NCBI RefSeq assembly: GCF_009931435.1
Contig: NZ_CP043414.1
Direction: 5' to 3' (one strand)
DNA: 64,000 nt
Source of the DNA: Escherichia coli
Lineage (GTDB): Bacteria > Pseudomonadota > Gammaproteobacteria > Enterobacterales > Enterobacteriaceae
The translations under genes and the position numbers were made by a program. The notes under the pieces are model-generated. The model searched no databases, was not told the origin of the DNA, and saw only the letters and a program-made list of their open reading frames with translations. This document shows, one piece after another, positions 5,037 to 64,000 of this stretch (position 1 is its first letter; every line of letters begins with the position of its first letter).

Positions 5037-6227
5037 TCACAGCACTTTATGCGGGCCAAAGCATTCGTAATGAATGTTTTCCTGTTTCACACCCAGGTCC
5101 ACTAACTGTTTCGCGGCAAACTGCATGAAGCCAACCGGGCCGCAGAGATAGAACTGCATTGTCGGATCGCTGAACGCACCTTCCAGTTTGCTCAAATCCA
5201 TCAGACCTTCACTATCAAACTGACCTTTAGCGCGATCGGCTTCGCTCGGCTGACGATACCAGGTGTGCGCGGTAAAGCGTGGCAGTGCTTGCCCCAGTTC
5301 CTTAACTTCATCGGCAAAGGCATGAACATCGCCATTTTCTGCCGCATGGAACCAGTTTACCTGAGCGCTATGACCTGCTTTTGCCAGCGTGTCGAGCATT
5401 GCCAGCATTGGTGTTTGACCGACACCGGCAGAGATTAACGTCACCGGCGTGTCATCTGCGATAGCCATAAAGAAATCACCTGCCGGAGCGACCAGTTTCA
5501 CGACATCGCCAACGTTGGCGTGATTGTGTAACCAGTTTGATACCTGCCCACCCTCTTCGCGTTTCACTGCAATACGATAGCCTTTGCCATCCGGTTTGCG
5601 CGTCAAAGAGTACTGACGAATTTCCTGATGTGGGAAACCTTCCGGTTTCAGCCAGACGCCGAGATATTGCCCTGGACGGTATTCCGCCACTGCGCCGCCG
5701 TCCACCGGCTCAAGTTCGAAACTGGTGATAAGCGTGCTGCGCGGTGTTTTAGCTACAATGCGGAAATCGCGAGTACCTTCCCAGCCACCGGCTTTGCTGG
5801 CGTTTTCGTTATAGATTTCCGCCTCGCGATTAATAAATACATTAGCCAGTACGCCATAGGCTTTACCCCACGCGTCCAGTACTTCCTGGCCCGGGCTGAA
5901 CATTTCGTCCAGCGTCGCCAACAGGTGTTCACCGACGATATTGTATTGTTCCGGTTTGATCTGGAAGCTGGTGTGTTTCTGAGCGATTTTTTCTACCGCT
6001 GGTAACAGCGCAGGCAGGTTTTCAATATTGCTGGCGTAGGCGGCAATAGCGTTAAACAGGGCTTCACGTTGATCGCCATTACGCTGGTTACTCATGTTAA
6101 AAATTTCTTTGAGTTCTGGGTTATGAGTAAACATACGGTCGTAGAAATGGGCGGTTAACTTTGGCCCTGTTTCCACCAGTAAAGGGATGGTGGCTTTTAC
6201 TGTAGCGATGGTTTGAGCGTCAAGCAT
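5037..6227 (-). CDS. hmp: Flavohemoglobin (nitric oxide dioxygenase)
   Basis: 396 aa from [15 protein letters not shown]; globin domain plus FAD/NAD-binding reductase domain; the ORF track extends 7 codons further upstream. Confidence 0.95.
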
Positions 6228-6233
6228 ATGGTC

Positions 6234-6290
6234 TTCCTTTTTTTGCATCTTAATTGATGTATCTCAAATGCATCTTATAAAAAATAGCCC
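6234..6290 (-). promoter_or_regulatory. hmp promoter with NsrR-type operator
   Basis: Minus strand reads AAGATGCATTTGAGATACATCAATTAAGATGCAAAAAAAGGAAGACCAT-ATG, with an inverted repeat AAGATGCAT / ATACATC and a further AAGATGC half-site. Confidence 0.6.
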
Positions 6291-6554
6291 TGCAATGTAA
6301 ATGGTTCTTTGGTGTTTTTCATGAAGAATGTGATGAAGTGAAAAATTTGCATCACAAACCTGAAAAGAAATCCGTTTACGGTTGCAAGCTCTTTATTCTC
6401 CAAAGCCTTGCGCAGACTGAAGGTAATCGTTTGCGTAAATTCCTTTGTCAAGACCTGTTATCGCACAATGATTCGGTTATACTGTTCGCCGTTGTCCAAC
6501 AGGACCGCCTATAAAGGCCGAAAATTTTATTGTTAGCTGAGTCAGGAGATGCGG

Positions 6555-7808
6555 ATGTTAAAGCGTGAAATGAACATTGCCGATTATGATGCCGAACTGT
6601 GGCAGGCTATGGAGCAGGAAAAAGTACGTCAGGAAGAGCACATCGAACTGATCGCCTCCGAAAACTACACTAGCCCGCGCGTAATGCAGGCGCAGGGTTC
6701 TCAGCTGACCAACAAATATGCTGAAGGTTATCCGGGCAAACGCTACTACGGCGGTTGCGAGTATGTTGATATCGTTGAACAACTGGCGATCGATCGCGCG
6801 AAAGAACTGTTCGGCGCTGACTACGCTAACGTCCAGCCGCACTCCGGCTCCCAGGCGAACTTTGCGGTCTACACCGCGCTGCTGGAACCCGGCGACACCG
6901 TTCTGGGTATGAACCTGGCGCATGGCGGTCACCTGACTCACGGTTCTCCGGTTAACTTCTCCGGTAAACTGTACAACATCGTTCCTTACGGTATCGATGC
7001 TACCGGTCATATCGACTACGCCGATCTGGAAAAACAAGCCAAAGAACACAAGCCGAAAATGATCATCGGTGGCTTCTCTGCATATTCCGGCGTGGTTGAC
7101 TGGGCGAAAATGCGTGAAATCGCTGACAGCATCGGTGCTTACCTGTTCGTTGATATGGCGCACGTTGCGGGACTGGTCGCTGCTGGCGTCTACCCGAACC
7201 CGGTTCCTCATGCTCACGTAGTGACTACCACCACTCACAAAACCCTGGCGGGTCCGCGCGGCGGCCTGATCCTGGCGAAAGGCGGTAGCGAAGAACTGTA
7301 CAAAAAACTGAACTCTGCCGTTTTCCCTGGTGGTCAGGGCGGCCCGTTGATGCACGTAATCGCTGGTAAAGCGGTTGCTCTGAAAGAAGCGATGGAGCCT
7401 GAGTTCAAAACTTACCAACAGCAGGTCGCGAAAAACGCTAAAGCGATGGTAGAAGTATTCCTGGAGCGCGGTTACAAAGTGGTTTCCGGCGGTACTGATA
7501 ACCACCTGTTCCTGGTTGATCTGGTTGATAAAAACCTGACCGGTAAAGAAGCTGACGCCGCTCTGGGCCGTGCTAACATCACCGTCAACAAAAACAGCGT
7601 ACCGAACGATCCGAAGAGCCCGTTTGTAACCTCCGGTATTCGCGTGGGTACTCCGGCGATTACACGTCGTGGCTTTAAAGAAGCCGAAGCGAAAGAACTG
7701 GCTGGCTGGATGTGTGACGTGCTGGACAGCATCAATGATGAAGCCGTTATCGAGCGCATCAAAGGTAAAGTTCTCGACATCTGCGCACGTTATCCGGTTT
7801 ACGCATAA
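6555..7808 (+). CDS. glyA: Serine hydroxymethyltransferase
   Basis: 417 aa from [22 protein letters not shown]; PLP-binding region [14 protein letters not shown] present. Confidence 0.95.
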
Positions 7809-31749: not shown

Positions 31750-32136
31750 ATGGCTTACAGCGAAAAAGTTATCGATCATTACGAGAATCCGCGTAACGTG
31801 GGTTCCTTCGACAACAACGACGAGAACGTGGGCAGTGGCATGGTGGGTGCACCGGCCTGTGGCGACGTGATGAAGTTGCAGATTAAAGTCAACGATGAAG
31901 GTATCATTGAAGACGCGCGTTTTAAAACTTACGGCTGCGGTTCCGCTATCGCTTCCAGCTCCCTGGTCACCGAATGGGTGAAAGGGAAGTCTCTCGACGA
32001 AGCACAGGCGATCAAAAACACCGATATTGCTGAAGAACTTGAACTGCCGCCGGTGAAAATTCACTGTTCTATTCTGGCAGAAGACGCGATCAAAGCCGCC
32101 ATTGCGGACTATAAAAGCAAACGTGAAGCAAAATAA
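31750..32136 (+). CDS. iscU: Fe-S cluster scaffold IscU
   Basis: 128 aa; conserved Cys residues and the LPPVK motif. Confidence 0.95.
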   Translation: MAYSEKVIDHYENPRNVGSFDNNDENVGSGMVGAPACGDVMKLQIKVNDEGIIEDARFKTYGCGSAIASSSLVTEWVKGKSLDEAQAIKNTDIAEELELPPVKIHCSILAEDAIKAAIADYKSKREAK

Positions 32137-46713: not shown

Positions 46714-46861
46714 TCTGTTTTGCTCATATTTGTTGCTTAAACTCGTTTTATTTTAAAAAAATGTTACCTTCATCAATAGTCAACGGCCCTGTTGCTCATT
46801 ATAATCCGCGCCATCTCGTACGCTGGTACAGACAACAACAGAATAATTTACAGAGGTAAAA

Positions 46862-56135: not shown

Positions 56136-56326
56136 TATTATTTAAATATATGGTGTAATCATTTGTATTCATAATATAAATGATTGCATCCTATTTTATT
56201 TGTTGAAACGCAAATGTAAGTGAGCGAAATCACTGTGTTATAAATTTAAGATTATATTTAGTTTTCCTGGCGTGCCTTTCTGAATAATCTGGAATAGAAT
56301 ATTAGAGCTAATTTTAAGCATTATTA
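56136..56326. other. AT-rich core/accessory junction and probable sinH promoter region
   Basis: About 190 bp markedly AT-rich compared with flanking coding DNA; lies where K-12 has the short yfgJ-xseA spacer. Confidence 0.5.
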
Positions 56327-58519
56327 ATGTCACAGGGGATGTGCATGCTGCGATGGAAACGCTGTATTATGCTAACATTTATCTCTGGAGCTGCTTTTGC
56401 GGCTCCAGAGATAAATGTTGAGCATAAAGAATCGTTACCTGATTTAGGTAGTCAGGCCGCACAACAGGAAGAGCAAACTAACAAGGGTAAATCGCTAAAA
56501 GAGCGTGGTGCCGATTACGTCATTAACTCTGCCACGCAAGGGTTTGAAAACCTCACACCCGAGGCGCTGGAGTCCCAGGCCAGAAGCTATCTGCAAAGTC
56601 AAATTACCTCTACGACACAATCTTATATTGAGGATACACTCTCCCCCTACGGTAAGGTCCGAACGAATCTTTCTCTTGGTCAGGGCGGCGATCTGGATGG
56701 CAGTTCCATCGACTATTTTGTTCCCTGGTATGATAATCAAACTACTGTTTATTTCAGCCAATTTTCTGCACAACGAAAAGAAGATCGTACGATCGGGAAT
56801 ATTGGGCTTGGTGTAAGACATAATTTTGATAGATGGTTATTGGGTGGAAATATATTTTATGATTATGATTTTACCCGTGGGCATCGCCGTTTAGGTTTAG
56901 GTGCCGAAGCCTGGACTGATTATTTAAAATTCTCTGGCAACTATTATCATCCGCTTTCTGACTGGAAAGACTCCGAAGATTTCGATTTTTATGAGGAGCG
57001 TCCTGCGCGCGGTTGGGATATTCGCGCCGAAGCCTGGCTACCTGCTTACCCGCAGCTTGGCGGTAAAATCGTTTTCGAACAGTATTACGGTGATGAAGTC
57101 GCGCTTTTTGGCACCGATAATCTGGAGAAAGATCCCTTCGCCGTCACGCTGGGTGTGAAATACCAGCCCGTACCGCTCATTGCCGTAGGAACGGATTTCA
57201 AAGCCGGCACTGGCGATAATACCGATCTTTCTGTTAACGCAACGCTGAACTACCAGTTTGGCGTCTCGCTCAAAGACCAGCTTGATCCTGACAAAGTAAG
57301 CGCGGCTCACTCGCTCATGGGCAGCCGTCACGACTTTGTTGAACGTAACAACTTTATTGTTCTGGAATACAAAGAGAAAGATCCCCTCGATGTCACTTTG
57401 TGGCTGAAAGCTGATGCGACGAATGAACATCCCGAGTGCGTGATTAAAGATACGCCAGAAGCAGCCATCGGGCTGGAAAAATGTAAGTGGACCATTAACG
57501 CGCTCATTAATCATCATTACAAAATCGTTGCTGCCTCCTGGCAGGCGAAAAACAATGCTGCACGTACGCTGGTGATGCCGGTTATCAAAGAAAATACGCT
57601 TACCGAAGGGAACAACAATCACTGGAATCTGGTGCTGCCTGCCTGGCAGTACAGCTCTGATAAAGCCGACCAGGAAAAACTCAATACCTGGCGGGTACGC
57701 CTGGCGCTGGAAGATGAAAAAGGCAATCGGCAGAACTCCGGCGTGGTGGAAATTACCGTTCAGCAGGACCGTAAAATTGAGCTCATTGTTAACAACATCG
57801 CCAATGTACCGGATGAGAACAATCACAGCCACGAAGCCAGCGCGCAAGCGGATGGTGTAGATGGTGTCGTCATGGATCTCGACGTTACCGATAGCTTTGG
57901 CGACAACACTGACCGTAACGGTAATGTCTTGCCGCAGGATAATCTCAGCCCGCAGCTGTTTGATGCCAACGATAAAAAAGTGACGCTGACGAATAAACCC
58001 TGCACCACCGAAGTGCCGTGCGTTTTTATCGTCAAACAAGATAAAGAAAAGGGGACCGTTACGCTCTCCAGTACGTTGCCCGGCACTTTCCGCTGGAAGG
58101 CGAAAGCCGCCCCTTATGATGACAGTAACTATGTTGACGTAACGTTCCTGGGTTCTGACATCGGCGGGCTGAATGCTTTTATCTACCGCGTTGGTGCAGC
58201 TAAGCCCGTCAATCTTATCGGCAACAAAGAACCGTTGCCTCTCAATAGCCGCTATCGCTTTGTGCTGTGGCGCGACGCTAACAAAGACGGCGTGTTCCAG
58301 CTTTCTGAGAAGCTCACTGACGATGAGATGAAACAGTATGACTATCAGTGGGAATTCACGGGGCATAGCGTAAATGGCAATACCGGTGCGCAAACCAATA
58401 CCACGAACGTCGATATAGAGATCCCGGCAACCAACAAGGAAGCGGCAGCAAAGTTTAGTGCCCAGGTAACCGATGGCGTGCAGGGATACGGTTTGCAGGT
58501 CAATTACAGCAAGAAATAG
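56327..58519 (+). CDS. sinH: Intimin/invasin-family outer membrane protein (inverse autotransporter)
   Basis: 730 aa; signal peptide ending AFA; beta-barrel-like segment with aromatic-rich strands (GWDIRAEAWLPAYPQLGGKIVFEQYYGDE); in-frame alternative starts at 56339 and 56345. Confidence 0.7.
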   Translation: MSQGMCMLRWKRCIMLTFISGAAFAAPEINVEHKESLPDLGSQAAQQEEQTNKGKSLKERGADYVINSATQGFENLTPEALESQARSYLQSQITSTTQSYIEDTLSPYGKVRTNLSLGQGGDLDGSSIDYFVPWYDNQTTVYFSQFSAQRKEDRTIGNIGLGVRHNFDRWLLGGNIFYDYDFTRGHRRLGLGAEAWTDYLKFSGNYYHPLSDWKDSEDFDFYEERPARGWDIRAEAWLPAYPQLGGKIVFEQYYGDEVALFGTDNLEKDPFAVTLGVKYQPVPLIAVGTDFKAGTGDNTDLSVNATLNYQFGVSLKDQLDPDKVSAAHSLMGSRHDFVERNNFIVLEYKEKDPLDVTLWLKADATNEHPECVIKDTPEAAIGLEKCKWTINALINHHYKIVAASWQAKNNAARTLVMPVIKENTLTEGNNNHWNLVLPAWQYSSDKADQEKLNTWRVRLALEDEKGNRQNSGVVEITVQQDRKIELIVNNIANVPDENNHSHEASAQADGVDGVVMDLDVTDSFGDNTDRNGNVLPQDNLSPQLFDANDKKVTLTNKPCTTEVPCVFIVKQDKEKGTVTLSSTLPGTFRWKAKAAPYDDSNYVDVTFLGSDIGGLNAFIYRVGAAKPVNLIGNKEPLPLNSRYRFVLWRDANKDGVFQLSEKLTDDEMKQYDYQWEFTGHSVNGNTGAQTNTTNVDIEIPATNKEAAAKFSAQVTDGVQGYGLQVNYSKK

Positions 58520-58574
58520 GGTCGGCGCCATGGCTGATCGGGCCACCGCTGAATATTAATCAAGGAGAGTGTTT

Positions 58575-59567
58575 ATGAAACCTGATATGAAACGTGGCCT
58601 GACAAAAGTCGCGCTCGCGTTGATGCTGGCTGGATACTGTGCCGTACCAGCCGCTATGGCGGAAGATGCCGCCTGGGTCGCCAGTGGAGCGACCGCTGAA
58701 TTCGAAGGGACTATACCCTGGCTCTATCGCGAAGGGGGGAATGCCACGATTAACTCGGAAGATGCGGATCACATTAAAGTGACGTCTGATGGTAAAGGGA
58801 CCCGCCCTGCAGGTAGCGAGACGGATAAACGCCTTTACTCAGGGGATACCATCACGCTGGGATGGGATATCGGCGATACCGAAGGGGATGTTGATGATGG
58901 TCCCGCAGGCATTGATGCGAAAACGACGGCCACTATCAAATGGTACAGCTACAGCAATAATGCGGGTGGCGATAAAACGGAGCTGACCGCAGCGGCAGGC
59001 AAGACGAGTTATAAACTCACTGATGACGATCGTGGGCGTTATATCGGTGTTGAAATCCAGCCCATCACCCAGACCGGTAATCCCTTCGAGGGAACGTCGC
59101 TGACTCTGCTGGATATTTCAACGGCCAGCGGTGGCGGCAGCGATACGGACAATGTCGATCCCGGCCCGGTTGTGAACCAGAATCTGAAAGTTGCCATCTT
59201 CGAGAAAGGCACCACTACCAACCTTATCGGTGGTAACACGGCCATTGCGCTTAATAAAACGTATGTGGCCAAACTGTACTCGGATGAAAACCAGAACGAT
59301 AAATACGACGCAGGTACGGATATGGACGTTACCGCTAACTATGACTTTGCATGGGTCTTTAACGGTAACAGTAAACAACTTGCTGCGGCGGGCGGTATTG
59401 CTAATGCCAGCTTCGATAACAATGACATTGTTATCCCGCAAACTAACGAAGAAGCAAGAACCAGCCTTAATGGTAGTGACCGTAATGGTAAGAGTGGTCT
59501 TGCGATCCCGGCAAACGGCGACGGCGTTCAGGGCTATACGCTGTCTATCATTTACAAACACCACTAA
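58575..59567 (+). CDS. sinI: Secreted protein of unknown function, SinI/SivI-like
   Basis: About 330 aa from the ATG at 58575 (AAGGAG RBS); signal peptide ending AMA; position between sinH and ratA. Confidence 0.65.
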   Translation: MKPDMKRGLTKVALALMLAGYCAVPAAMAEDAAWVASGATAEFEGTIPWLYREGGNATINSEDADHIKVTSDGKGTRPAGSETDKRLYSGDTITLGWDIGDTEGDVDDGPAGIDAKTTATIKWYSYSNNAGGDKTELTAAAGKTSYKLTDDDRGRYIGVEIQPITQTGNPFEGTSLTLLDISTASGGGSDTDNVDPGPVVNQNLKVAIFEKGTTTNLIGGNTAIALNKTYVAKLYSDENQNDKYDAGTDMDVTANYDFAWVFNGNSKQLAAAGGIANASFDNNDIVIPQTNEEARTSLNGSDRNGKSGLAIPANGDGVQGYTLSIIYKHH

Positions 59568-59574
59568 TGCGCAC

Positions 59575-59613
59575 AACAGCATTCCCATATGGGAATGCTG
59601 TTTTCCGCCTGTT
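59575..59613 (+). terminator. Hairpin terminator downstream of sinI
   Basis: 12-bp stem aacagcattccc / gggaatgctgtt with loop atat, followed by a T-rich tail. Confidence 0.6.
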
Positions 59614-59676
59614 TTGCTTAGCGACGCGTTAAGCAAAACAGGTTGATGTTTTGTTTATCATGCTGGAGTTTTCTAC

Positions 59677-62600
59677 ATGTCGGTATGTCTGAAACCAGGG
59701 AAAATCATTATGCTTCTGGGCATGTTGGCAGCTTTTATGCTGTCTGACTTTGCACGGGCAGGGGCGGAATGGCAGACATATCCTGATTCTACAGGCGAGT
59801 TTAACGGAACCGTTCCTTTTGCCGACAGCGCCAGCGTACCCGTCTATCAGGGCAGTGTTCAGCTTAATCCTGCTGAATCTCATGATGTCGGGTTTTCTGC
59901 TAAACCGAATGAATTTAGTGTTGACGATGACGCTGCTAACCTGATTGTTGCTAATCCTCAGGACAATGAAGGCGACCAGTTTTCCACACCACCTGCGCTG
60001 CGCTGGGAAAATCAAACACCCCCTACCGTCAGCCTGGTGTGGGCCGATGCCGCCACGCCCGATGTGCCCCTTAACCCACAACCCATTGCTAACCGTAGCT
60101 TTTGCGCTCAGGGGCTCGCCGGACGCTCGCTGGTGGCCTGGCCGCAGATTGATGCGCAGCAAACCCTCCCACTGCTCTACCTGCTGACCTCGACCGGGTA
60201 TCCCTATGCGGGGACGGTGGCGCTGGTGGACCAGAAAGTGACCCTGAACATCGCGCCCGCGCAGGGCGATTTAATCTCGGTGAGCGCCAGCGGTTATAAC
60301 GAAACGATCGCGGCGGCAAAAACCACCGTTGGCGACACCATCACGCTCACCGTCACCACTAAAGATTGTCAGGGCAACGTCGCGGGTAATATTCCGTTTA
60401 TTATCAAACGTAAAGATGCTGAAAATCGCCAGGGGGCAGTGAATAATAGTGCGCCAGTGGTACTGGATAGCACCGAGTTAACGACGACGGCTACCGAATA
60501 CCATGGCACCTCTGATTCCAACGGCACGGCCACCATCACGGTGAGCCAACCGAACGGCCCTGGTGTCAAAACGCCACTGGTGGTCAGCATTTCCGGCATT
60601 GCGCAAACCAGCGAAACCGCAGTGATTTTTACCGTACTCACCAGCCCGGACGTGGCGCAGGCTACGATGTGGGGCCATATGGCGGAGACGGTAGAAGCCC
60701 ACGGTTACACCTTCAGTCGACCAAAGCTGGCGGCAGAAGTCAGCAATGAAAGCGCCACGGTTGTCGATCATAACGAAACCTGGTCCACCTTCACCTGGAG
60801 CGGCGCAGATAGCCACTGCACCGTGCTGCCCGGCATGCGCCACTTCGGCGCGCTGGCGACCGTTATCCCCACGTCGGTGCAGACAGCCCTTGGCTGGCCG
60901 ATGCAGGGGGATTATTACTGGTCATCGCTGGCGGGCACCACCGGGCAGCACCATGCGGCGGATGTCTCTAACCGTAGTGAAACGCAAAAGCCGGATAGCA
61001 CCCCGTTTCTTGTGAGCTGCGTGGATAAACCCGCGCCTGATGTCGAACCGAAAATCGTCCTTACGCCCGAAAACTATGATGATACGGCACAGGCGATGAA
61101 ATCGCAGGTGGGCGAAGACGCCACGATGCGTCTGACGATCACCGACAATAAAAATAACGATCAACCACTGGCGTATTACTACTTCTCGCTGCATCTGGAT
61201 GACGGCGTTAACCGCAAAAATCAAACCGATTCCGCCTGGGAAGCCCATCCGGTGCAGATTACTGGTGGTTCGAATTTACAACAGGTTGATGCTCACACCT
61301 ATGAAGGCATGACCGATGTCAACGGTCAGGCTTCGCTAACCCTGAGTCAGCCCGACGGCGCAGGCGTGAAAACCCATATCACGGCGAAAATGCGCAGCAA
61401 TTTTACGGCTACAGATGCCAAAGACGTGATTTTTACTGTGATCACCAGCCCGGACAGCGACAAGGCGCGGATGTGGGGCCATATGCGCGGCATTGTTGTA
61501 TCTGGCAGTCTGTTCAAACGCCCAGTGCTGGCGGATGAAACTGAGCATGAACTGGGATCGGTGCGGGAAAATGACGAAGACTGGGCGCTGTTCGATCAAG
61601 ACACCAGTATGCAGGCTGAATGCGGCGTCGGCCATACGCCACGTCAGAGTGGGCTGGAAAGCCTGTTTTCAGCCCATCCCGGTAACGCGATTGGCACTGA
61701 GTATGGCTGGCCCACCGCCCAACAGAGCTACTTAAGCGCGGTGGAGCAAGCCACGCATTCATCGGTGAATCTGGGGAACGGAAACGTCGACAGCTACTCC
61801 GGCTTTAAGCAGAATTACCTCTCCTGTTCGGGCAATGAGATGGTAGCGAAGGTTGAAGTCAGCACCGATCACGATATCACCCCTGGCAGCAAAGCGCAGG
61901 CCAAAGTAGGTGACACCATCGTGATGACCGTGCGTACGATTAACGCGCTCAATAATACCCCGGTACCCTTTACTGCATTCACCATTACCAAAGGCATGGG
62001 GTATAACCGAGCGGGGCTGGTGAGCGGGTTTGATGACCCGAGCAGCGGCGCAATCTCGATGAATGGCACGCAATACGGCACATCACAGCCGTCGATGGTC
62101 TACACAGGTACGACAGATGCACAAGGCGTGGCAACGGTCGAAATAGAGCAACCCCAGGGGGTGGGGTTAAGAACCGTGCTGAGCATTACGCCGGTCAATT
62201 CCCATCTACCAAATGCCATTAATTACAATGTTATTTTTACCACCCCAACCAGCCCGGATGTTAGTGGGGCGCAGATGTGGGGCCATATGGATGAAACGAT
62301 TACCGTTGATTCATTAACCTTTACCCGGCCTAAGCTGGCAGCAGAAATCGCCAGTCCGGATGGCACACTAACGGAAAAAAACGAAGTCTGGGCGCGCGTT
62401 AGCCAGGCCAGTACGGCCATTACCAGTAAAGGCGGTTGCGGAACCAATATGCTGCCGCGCCGCTCCCAGCTCAGTGCGCTTTATGACGCTAATAACGGTA
62501 ATGCGGTGCAAGCCACACACGGCTGGCCGACGCAGCGTCAGCCCTACTGGAGCAGTTCCCCCGCGGATTTAACGCCGCACAATTACACCATTGCCCTGGA

Positions 62601-64000
62601 TAACGGCGCACAGGCCATCGGCGGCGATACGCCGGTTTACGTCAGTTGCCTGACGACGGCGAACAAACCTGCCAGCAGCATTACGCTGGATGTGGTTGAT
62701 AACGCACAGTGGGCTGCCGGAAATAACGCGGCGAAGCTGAAAAAAGGCGAAACGCTACGGGTTAAGGTAACGGTAAAAGATGCGCAGGGTAATCCGCTCA
62801 CGGATATGCCATTTAAACTGAGTCGCGGAGACGGTTATACCCGCACGGGCGAAAAACATATTGCCGGTAGTGGCGATGCGCTGGTGGCACCGGTGGTGAT
62901 TAACAGTGGGCTGGCGGATGAAACGACGTTGAACGACACCGCGGGATTTTATACTGCCATGACCGGTAGCGACGGCAGCAAAATCCTCAATATTACCCGC
63001 CCGGATACTCACGGCACCAAAACGGCGCTGACGGCGACGTTGTATTCCGATCCAACAAAAAAAGACAGCCTGGATACAATCTTTACTGTGGTCACCAGCC
63101 CGGATAGTAGCAAAGCGAAAATGTGGGGGCATATGCCGGAAACGGTGACGGCTGCGGACGGTACGGTATTTAAACGCCCGCTGTTGTTGAAGGAACTGGC
63201 CTATCAGACTGGGCGAACATCGACGTCTGAAGACAATGAAAACTGGGCGTTGTTTAACATTAATTATGCGAGTTCTTCCACGACGTATAGTGGCTGTGGA
63301 ACCAACTATATTCCGACTCAAGCCGGTCTGACGTCACTGTTTGCTAATAATGCGGGCAACACCATGAAAACCGTGCAGGGCTGGCCGGTGGCAACACGCT
63401 ATTTGTCCAACACGTCCGACAACGGCAGCATGGAGCAGCGTAACTACAAGGCGGTAGATCTCAGCAATGGCACGAGTGCGGCAGTGTCATCAACGGCGCT
63501 GCAACTGCTGACCTGCCAGACCACGCCGGTAACCACGGTGGGCCAAATTCTGCTGGAAGCGGCAGATCCGGCGACGCTGGATACCACCTATAACGTGGTA
63601 AAAGCGAAAAAAGGCGAAGAATCCGTGGTGCGCGTCACCACCAAAGATACGCAAGGCAACCTGGTGGGCAATACGGCATTTATCCTGACGCGTGCCAACA
63701 GCGTGAGTCGGGCTAACGCATCAGCAACCGCGAGCGTGGGCGCGCTGACGGTGACGGATGCTTGGGGAAATACGCGAAATAATTTCCAGTCGACGAGTGA
63801 AACGATTTACGGCGTGACTGGTGCAGACGGGTCAACGACATTTACCCTGAAACAGGATAACAGTACCGGGTTAAGAACCGATCTCACGGCAAAACTGGAT
63901 ACGTCCAGCAGCGTCAAGGCGACGCTACCGGTGGTCTTTACTGTCGTGACCAGCCCGGATTCGCCAAAAGCGAATTTTTGGGGACATATGGCCGAAACGG
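59677..64000 (+). CDS. ratA: Giant modular secreted/surface protein, RatA/RatB-like (5' partial; continues past window end)
   Basis: Single open frame with no stop from about 59677 to 64000 (at least 1441 codons), not in the ORF track because it has no in-window stop; signal peptide; repeated modules with the motif [VI][VI]FT..TSPD......WGHM. Confidence 0.75.
60500..64000 (+). repeat. Tandem protein-coding modules within ratA (period about 804-855 nt)
   Basis: Anchor motif starts at about 60622, 61426, 62230, 63076 and 63931, giving 268, 268, 282 and 285 aa spacing; flanking residues diverge, so the duplication is old. Confidence 0.65.

Follow-up and report, generated by a model that had tools for sequence, protein, structure and literature searches.

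The region between hmp and glyA raises the question of whether hmp in this Escherichia coli genome is governed by an intact NsrR operator, and of whether a second copy of the operator core AAGATGC, located close to the hmp ribosome-binding site, takes any part in that control.

Locus organisation

The 64-kb window (i.e., the whole stretch of DNA that was analysed) carries the gene order glrR-glnB, hmp (minus strand), glyA (plus strand), yphH and yphG, on to the isc operon and ndk. A reading made from the letters of this DNA (referred to as the sequence-only reading) had named the two central genes as a divergently oriented hmp and glyA, and NCBIfam matches and RefSeq annotation agreed with both the identities and the layout:

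5037–6227, minus strand: hmp (hmpA) coding sequence, 396 aa, NO-inducible flavohemoprotein (NO dioxygenase); ORF list, NCBIfam NF009805 (627 bits, full length) and RefSeq annotation of the identical locus
6555–7808, plus strand: glyA coding sequence, 417 aa, serine hydroxymethyltransferase; ORF list, NCBIfam NF000586 (678 bits) and RefSeq annotation
6228–6554: spacer of 327 bp between the hmp ATG (6227, minus strand) and the glyA ATG (6555, plus strand)

The spacer is present as a single copy in 5425 of 5426 complete E. coli genomes, and the divergent glyA-hmp layout recurred in 109 of the 111 Enterobacterales species examined (median spacer of 327 bp). Moreover, MG1655 shows the same genes and a spacer of the same length (327 bp), and control of hmp by NsrR, FNR and MetR is already in the literature, so that the sequence-only reading was right to call this a known arrangement. 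The region is almost certainly the usual divergent control region of hmp and glyA in E. coli, with an intact NsrR operator, and the sequence itself offers nothing against this explanation. Both the operator and its arrangement are already known and ordinary; NsrR, FNR and MetR control of hmp is textbook for the NO stress response of E. coli, and the window carries the common, intact allele.

An NsrR operator overlaps the hmp –10 hexamer and start site

The hmp promoter could be positioned with a promoter scan and with the transcriptional start site mapped experimentally by Rodionov et al. 2005 (Fig. S3, PMC1274295), i.e., the A in TTTG[A]GATACA. On the hmp strand, the promoter-proximal sequence reads TTTACA-N18-TAAGAT GCATTTG[A]GATACATCAATTAAGATGCAAAAAAAGGAAGACCAT-ATG, and the following elements were recognised in it:

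6296–6301, minus strand: hmp –35 hexamer TTTACA; promoter scan, and second conserved block of the cross-genus footprint (see below)
6272–6277, minus strand: hmp –10 hexamer TAAGAT (–13 to –8), under the strong left arm of the operator; promoter scan and published start site
6254–6276, minus strand: NsrR operator, a 23-bp 11-1-11 imperfect inverted repeat AAGATGCATTT-G-AGATACATCAA (= AAGATGCATTTGAGATACATCAA), –12 to +11; matrix scan, identity with studied alleles, and conservation
6264, minus strand: hmp transcription start (+1), giving a 37-nt 5′UTR; mapped start transferred by sequence identity
6254–6267, no strand assigned: FNR box TTGAGATACATCAA, 9/10 to TTGAT-N4-ATCAA, inside the right NsrR arm, at about –3 to +11; consensus match
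6241–6251, minus strand: half-site-like 11-mer AAGATGCAAAA, +14 to +24 of the hmp mRNA; 7.7 bits with the matrix, and listed in Table 2 of Mehta et al. 2015
6233–6239, minus strand: hmp Shine-Dalgarno AAGGAAG, 5 nt before the ATG; read from the sequence

For the motif scan, a palindromised NsrR matrix was derived from the 25 published sites in Table 4 of Mehta et al. 2015 (PMC5320621), with hmp omitted. With this leave-hmp-out matrix, the hmp 23-mer was the best match in the 64-kb window (17.9 bits), and this score was attained anywhere in only 5 of 200 random 64-kb sequences. The NsrR-type inverted repeat that had been claimed for the hmp promoter is thus real, although the full published site spans 23 bp and not 21. 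The 21-mer quoted at the time (AAGATGCATTTGAGATACATC) occurs once in the window (6276–6256, minus strand), and no match to it with up to 3 mismatches appeared in 100 shuffles.

The operator takes the form of an AAnATGCATTT inverted repeat with a 1-bp spacer. Its left arm (AAGATGCATTT) reaches 15.9 of the possible 15.97 bits and is the best half-site in the window, while the right arm (AGATACATCAA) reaches 2.4 bits only and is a poor NsrR half-site, its degeneracy being due to its double use as an FNR box. Since the two arms share no exact 6-nt seed, the palindrome was missed by repeat finding on the sequence. The ytfE and hcp operators of E. coli, which share the motif and the repressor, are near-perfect 11-1-11 palindromes with matrix scores of 32 and 27 bits, respectively, in contrast to the 17.9 bits of the hmp operator, which is strong in its left arm only. 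As to the FNR box, five FNR-type 9/10 matches were counted in the window versus 2.4 expected; the motif alone is therefore weak evidence, and it is the position over the start site, together with the literature, that supports the box.

The second-best 23-bp match to the NsrR matrix (16.3 bits; 46743–46765, TCGTTTTATTTTAAAAAAATGTT) lies in the ndk-pbpC intergenic region upstream of ndk, and is probably a chance match, being A/T-rich and absent from the CFT073 ChIP-seq table. A further match, at 31873–31895, falls inside iscU and was treated as chance as well.

The operator is identical to that of studied strains

Alignment with MG1655 revealed not a single difference in the 75 bp that precede the hmp ATG, so that the –35 and –10 hexamers, operator, FNR box, second AAGATGC and Shine-Dalgarno of the b2551-b2552 region all recur unchanged. 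The six substitutions that distinguish the two spacers (window positions 6520, 6416, 6413, 6378, 6323 and 6322) are all located farther upstream. The 23-mer is also equal to the CFT073 site TTGATGTATCTCAAATGCATCTT, which lies under the NsrR ChIP-seq peak that Mehta et al. 2015 (PMC5320621) reported between glyA and hmp (3.79-fold enrichment, with the summit 34 bp from the start codon). Both 11-mers, AAGATGCATTT and AAGATGCAAAA, are identical in CFT073, at 44 and 19 nt from the start codon, and figure in Table 2 of that study as 'hmp (44) AAGATGCATTT' (PatSer 10.92) and 'hmp (19) AAGATGCAAAA' (PatSer 5.00, ln P –7.08; a possible half-site). The operator is therefore intact, as the sequence-only reading had stated, with no disrupting substitutions relative to either characterised site.

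From the literature on this identical sequence, we infer how the operator would work in the present strain. NsrR, a [4Fe-4S] homodimer encoded elsewhere in the genome, would bind the 23-bp 11-1-11 site (6276–6254) and repress hmp. The position of the site (–12 to +11) permits repression, and since it covers both the –10 hexamer and the start site, bound NsrR would be expected to block initiation by RNA polymerase. Upon exposure to NO, nitrosylation of the cluster would cause NsrR to leave the DNA, allowing hmp to be transcribed; the published work on this sequence describes binding of holo-NsrR to the 11-1-11 site, and derepression of hmp when NO destroys the DNA-binding form. In addition, the FNR box in the right arm may provide for a second, anaerobic repressor, and MetR-type boxes farther upstream may serve both hmp and glyA, in keeping with literature that reports strong NsrR repression, anaerobic FNR repression and MetR modulation of hmp. 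Although the nsrR locus lies outside the window, 5425 of the 5426 complete E. coli genomes carry the gene, and its presence in the source genome is, judging from the species, almost certain.

The operator is conserved among Enterobacterales but weakest in Escherichia

A set of 120 Enterobacterales hmp loci was retrieved with a degenerate DNA pattern for the Hmp N-terminus, so without use of the promoter, and yielded 118 usable species. With the operator scored as present when the 23-bp site reached at least 15 bits, it was found approximately 48–50 nt before the hmp ATG in 115 of these 118 species, the three exceptions being Providencia. A footprint was then computed from the sequences anchored on the site, with weighting by genus (51 genera). 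Counted from the site start, columns –3 to +27 had a high information content, as did the –35 TTTACA, while columns 28–36 (i.e., most of the second half-site) ranged from 0.15 to 0.36 bits across the 51 genera. Within the leader, AAGGA or GGAAG was retained in most Enterobacteriaceae hmp 5′UTRs.

Across the retrieved loci, conservation extended 3–4 nt beyond the 23-mer on each side (–4 to –1 and +24 to +27), in the symmetric form TTAT-site-ATAA. These flanks suggest either that the effective operator is about 31 bp long, or that the –10 hexamer on one side is mirrored by unexplained conservation on the other.

The Escherichia operator (four loci) was the weakest of all 115 species, with 17.2 bits versus a median of 27.3, and this minimum coincides with the conversion of the right arm into an FNR box. 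Among the Enterobacterales species compared, an FNR box with at most one mismatch was confined to Escherichia and some Citrobacter. Rodionov et al. 2005 (PMC1274295) mark an FNR site upstream of hmp (legend of Fig. S3) and describe it as conserved in E. coli and Salmonella only. Since its restriction had thus been noted earlier, the overlay of a weak operator and an FNR box in Escherichia extends known facts rather than constituting a discovery. The poor right arm and the lowest score among 115 species nevertheless indicate that repression of hmp may be less tight than that of ytfE or hcp, and such a degenerate operator is relevant to any use of the E. coli hmp promoter in NO biosensing or as a model for NsrR sites.

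Two characterised relatives can be set beside the E. coli operator. The hmp NsrR site of Salmonella Typhimurium (AAGATGCATTTGATATACATCAT; PMC10783083) has the same position and strong left arm, and its right arm likewise contains an FNR-like box, albeit with two bases that differ from E. coli; in contrast to E. coli, its 5′UTR, which reads TAGATTTTCAC, carries no second AAGATGC. In Vibrio vulnificus, hmpA is repressed through one NsrR site over the start (NSRRB, –2 to +18; PMC8175989), but the divergent partner is nsrR instead of glyA, and the co-regulators are Lrp and CRP.

Variation of the hmp promoter within E. coli

Of 5418 complete E. coli genomes, 3630 carry exactly this 86-nt core promoter (6225–6310), among them K-12 derivatives and O157:H7, and the remaining 1788 genomes were 95–99% identical over this stretch. 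The run of A residues between the second AAGATGC and the Shine-Dalgarno (6238–6244) is A7 here and in the 3630 identical genomes. In strain 5-1, the sole genome with a minor allele that was inspected, this run is A8 and the operator is untouched, and an A8 run is found in Escherichia sp. E1V33 too.

A larger change was observed in E. coli MS14384 (NZ_LR130562.1), in which a 29-bp tandem duplication, equivalent to approximately 6240–6268, presents TTTGAGATACATCAATTAAGATGCAAAAA twice. Start site, FNR box and right NsrR arm are each present twice as a result, and AAGATGC three times, since its second copy is duplicated too. This duplication indicates that the region is prone to repeat-mediated rearrangement.

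Taken over its whole length, the spacer was found at 99% identity or more in only 18 genomes, pointing to an uncommon lineage as the source. Toward the end of the window (approximately 56300–64000), colinearity with strain 2020CK-00188 places sinH, a SinI-family gene and a large adhesin gene (an intimin-like inverse autotransporter cluster). We take this cluster not to be intact in K-12.

The second AAGATGC is most likely not an independent operator

The second AAGATGC (6251–6245, minus strand) opens the 11-mer AAGATGCAAAA, which ends 1 nt before the AAGGAAG Shine-Dalgarno. Together, the first and second copies form an exact 9-nt direct repeat (TAAGATGCA) with a start-to-start spacing of 25 bp. 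The sequence-only reading had counted this copy as a second half-site near the ribosome-binding site; the sequence is indeed there, but a functional role in NsrR binding is supported neither by the matrix score nor by conservation across genera. As both 11-mers already stand in a published table, the second half-site is no new observation either. Most likely, this copy does not act as an operator of its own, and it should not be taken as an established one.

Probably, this second copy has no role at the DNA level and is a chance or slippage repeat in an A/T-rich 5′UTR, with any constraint within Escherichia acting on the mRNA leader instead (i.e., on translation initiation, the A-rich spacer or sRNA pairing). 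Its 7.7 bits are at background, since random sequence of the spacer's composition yields such a score about every 166 bp, and it is reached or exceeded by 77 11-mers in the window, two others of which lie in the same spacer. As a 7-mer, AAGATGC occurs 16 times in the window versus 10.7 expected, and 8% of dinucleotide-shuffled spacers contained a 9-nt direct repeat within 60 nt. Only Escherichia (coli, albertii, whittamii and sp. E1V33) carried the GATGC core of this copy; beyond the genus only the first two A's are conserved, probably because they belong to the extended palindrome TTAT-site-ATAA. A role outside DNA binding also fits the polymorphism of the adjacent A-run (A7 or A8), the non-identical allele in about one third of the genomes, and the duplication of the segment in MS14384.

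The literature moreover names the hmpA mRNA as a target of the sRNA SdsN. However, RNAduplex prediction with SdsN137 of MG1655 and the hmp leader returned a long and unrealistic duplex that 212 of 300 shuffles equalled, and the calculation is uninformative on this point. An Rfam scan of 5900–6900 yielded only mir-67 (E = 0.33), which is far under the gathering score and meaningless. Set against a repeat of no consequence for the DNA is also the observation that the four Escherichia species sampled share this segment unchanged, apart from the A-run.

It is unlikely that AAGATGCAAAA (6251–6241) instead acts as an auxiliary NsrR half-site, which would recruit a further subunit or dimer 25 bp downstream of the left arm and thereby compensate in Escherichia for the right arm degraded by the FNR box. 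Such a role would be in keeping with the exact repetition of the operator core at a 25-bp spacing, precisely in the genus with the weakest main operator, and single 11-bp motifs have been reported as functional for E. coli NsrR. The 11-mer is also among the possible 11-bp NsrR motifs under the ChIP-seq peak, although two sites 25 bp apart fall below the resolution of that method. Across genera, the mean half-site score at offset 25 exceeded that at neighbouring offsets and in all 2000 shuffles, and scores of at least 7 bits at this offset were obtained in some Citrobacter, Enterobacter and Photorhabdus, some Proteus, and Y. pestis. Nevertheless, the genus-averaged score at offset 25 is negative (–5.6 bits), and a score of 5 bits is attained there in only about 15% of genera. 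The enrichment stems almost wholly from the two A's in columns 26–27, which flank the main site, the rest of the 11-mer being at the background conservation of columns 28–36, and a conserved third half-site at this offset was largely rejected on these grounds. Further arguments against an auxiliary half-site are the two equal or better 11-mers elsewhere in the spacer, the absence of the second copy from Salmonella and Klebsiella, the single protected site at V. vulnificus hmpA (PMC8175989) and the published finding that ScNsrR does not bind half-sites.

Still more doubtful is an evolutionary extension of this idea, in which Escherichia would have sacrificed the right arm (ancestrally given as AAATACATCTT) for the overlapping FNR box, leaving the weakest operator among the Enterobacterales sampled, and would have gained the second AAGATGC as a third half-site that compensates for this weakness and makes NsrR repression tight again. 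If this were true, the A7/A8 run and the 29-bp duplication in MS14384 would tune basal hmp expression. Finally, that the palindrome is primarily an FNR operator to which NsrR binds secondarily is very improbable: the box over the start site does agree with the consensus in 9 of 10 bases, and repression of hmp by FNR has been described, but the NsrR palindrome recurs in 115 of 118 species while the FNR box is restricted to a few, a clade restriction remarked on by Rodionov et al. (PMC1274295) as well, and the literature calls NsrR repression strong.

Apart from its likeness to a half-site, the second AAGATGC contains an ATG (6246–6248, minus strand) that is in frame with hmp and would add MQKKEDH to the N-terminus of the protein. 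This upstream ATG, at +17 of the mRNA, is specific to Escherichia and has no preceding Shine-Dalgarno; it is probably unused.

Candidate elements toward glyA

Farther upstream of hmp, three candidate elements were noted in the spacer:

6339–6351, no strand assigned: MetR-like box TGAAAAATTTGCA, 7/8 to TGAA-N5-TTCA, at about –75 to –87 from the hmp start; motif-level candidate
6421–6436, no strand assigned: PurR-box-like AGGTAATCGTTTGCGT, 13/16 to ACGCAAACGTTTGCGT, on the glyA side; motif match
6445–6472, plus strand: glyA-side sigma-70 promoter-like TTGTCA-16-AATGAT; consensus match only

The PurR-like box is presumably the one through which PurR controls glyA. The MetR pattern is not enriched in the window, with 25 matches versus 27.6 expected. 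The box falls in the part of the spacer whose regulatory sites both genes would share, and its assignment to MetR draws on literature that describes two MetR sites in the hmp-glyA region and on the block TGC.AATTTTTCA, which is conserved in the alignment of Rodionov et al. 2005 (PMC1274295).

Between the hmp –35 hexamer and the nearest MetR-like box, positions 6322–6323 (–58/–59 from the hmp start) read CA on the hmp strand, versus TC in MG1655. This allele is rare, a 66-nt stretch containing it being matched exactly in 8 of 5425 complete E. coli genomes, and the change creates an 8-bp palindrome, TTCATGAA (6318–6325).
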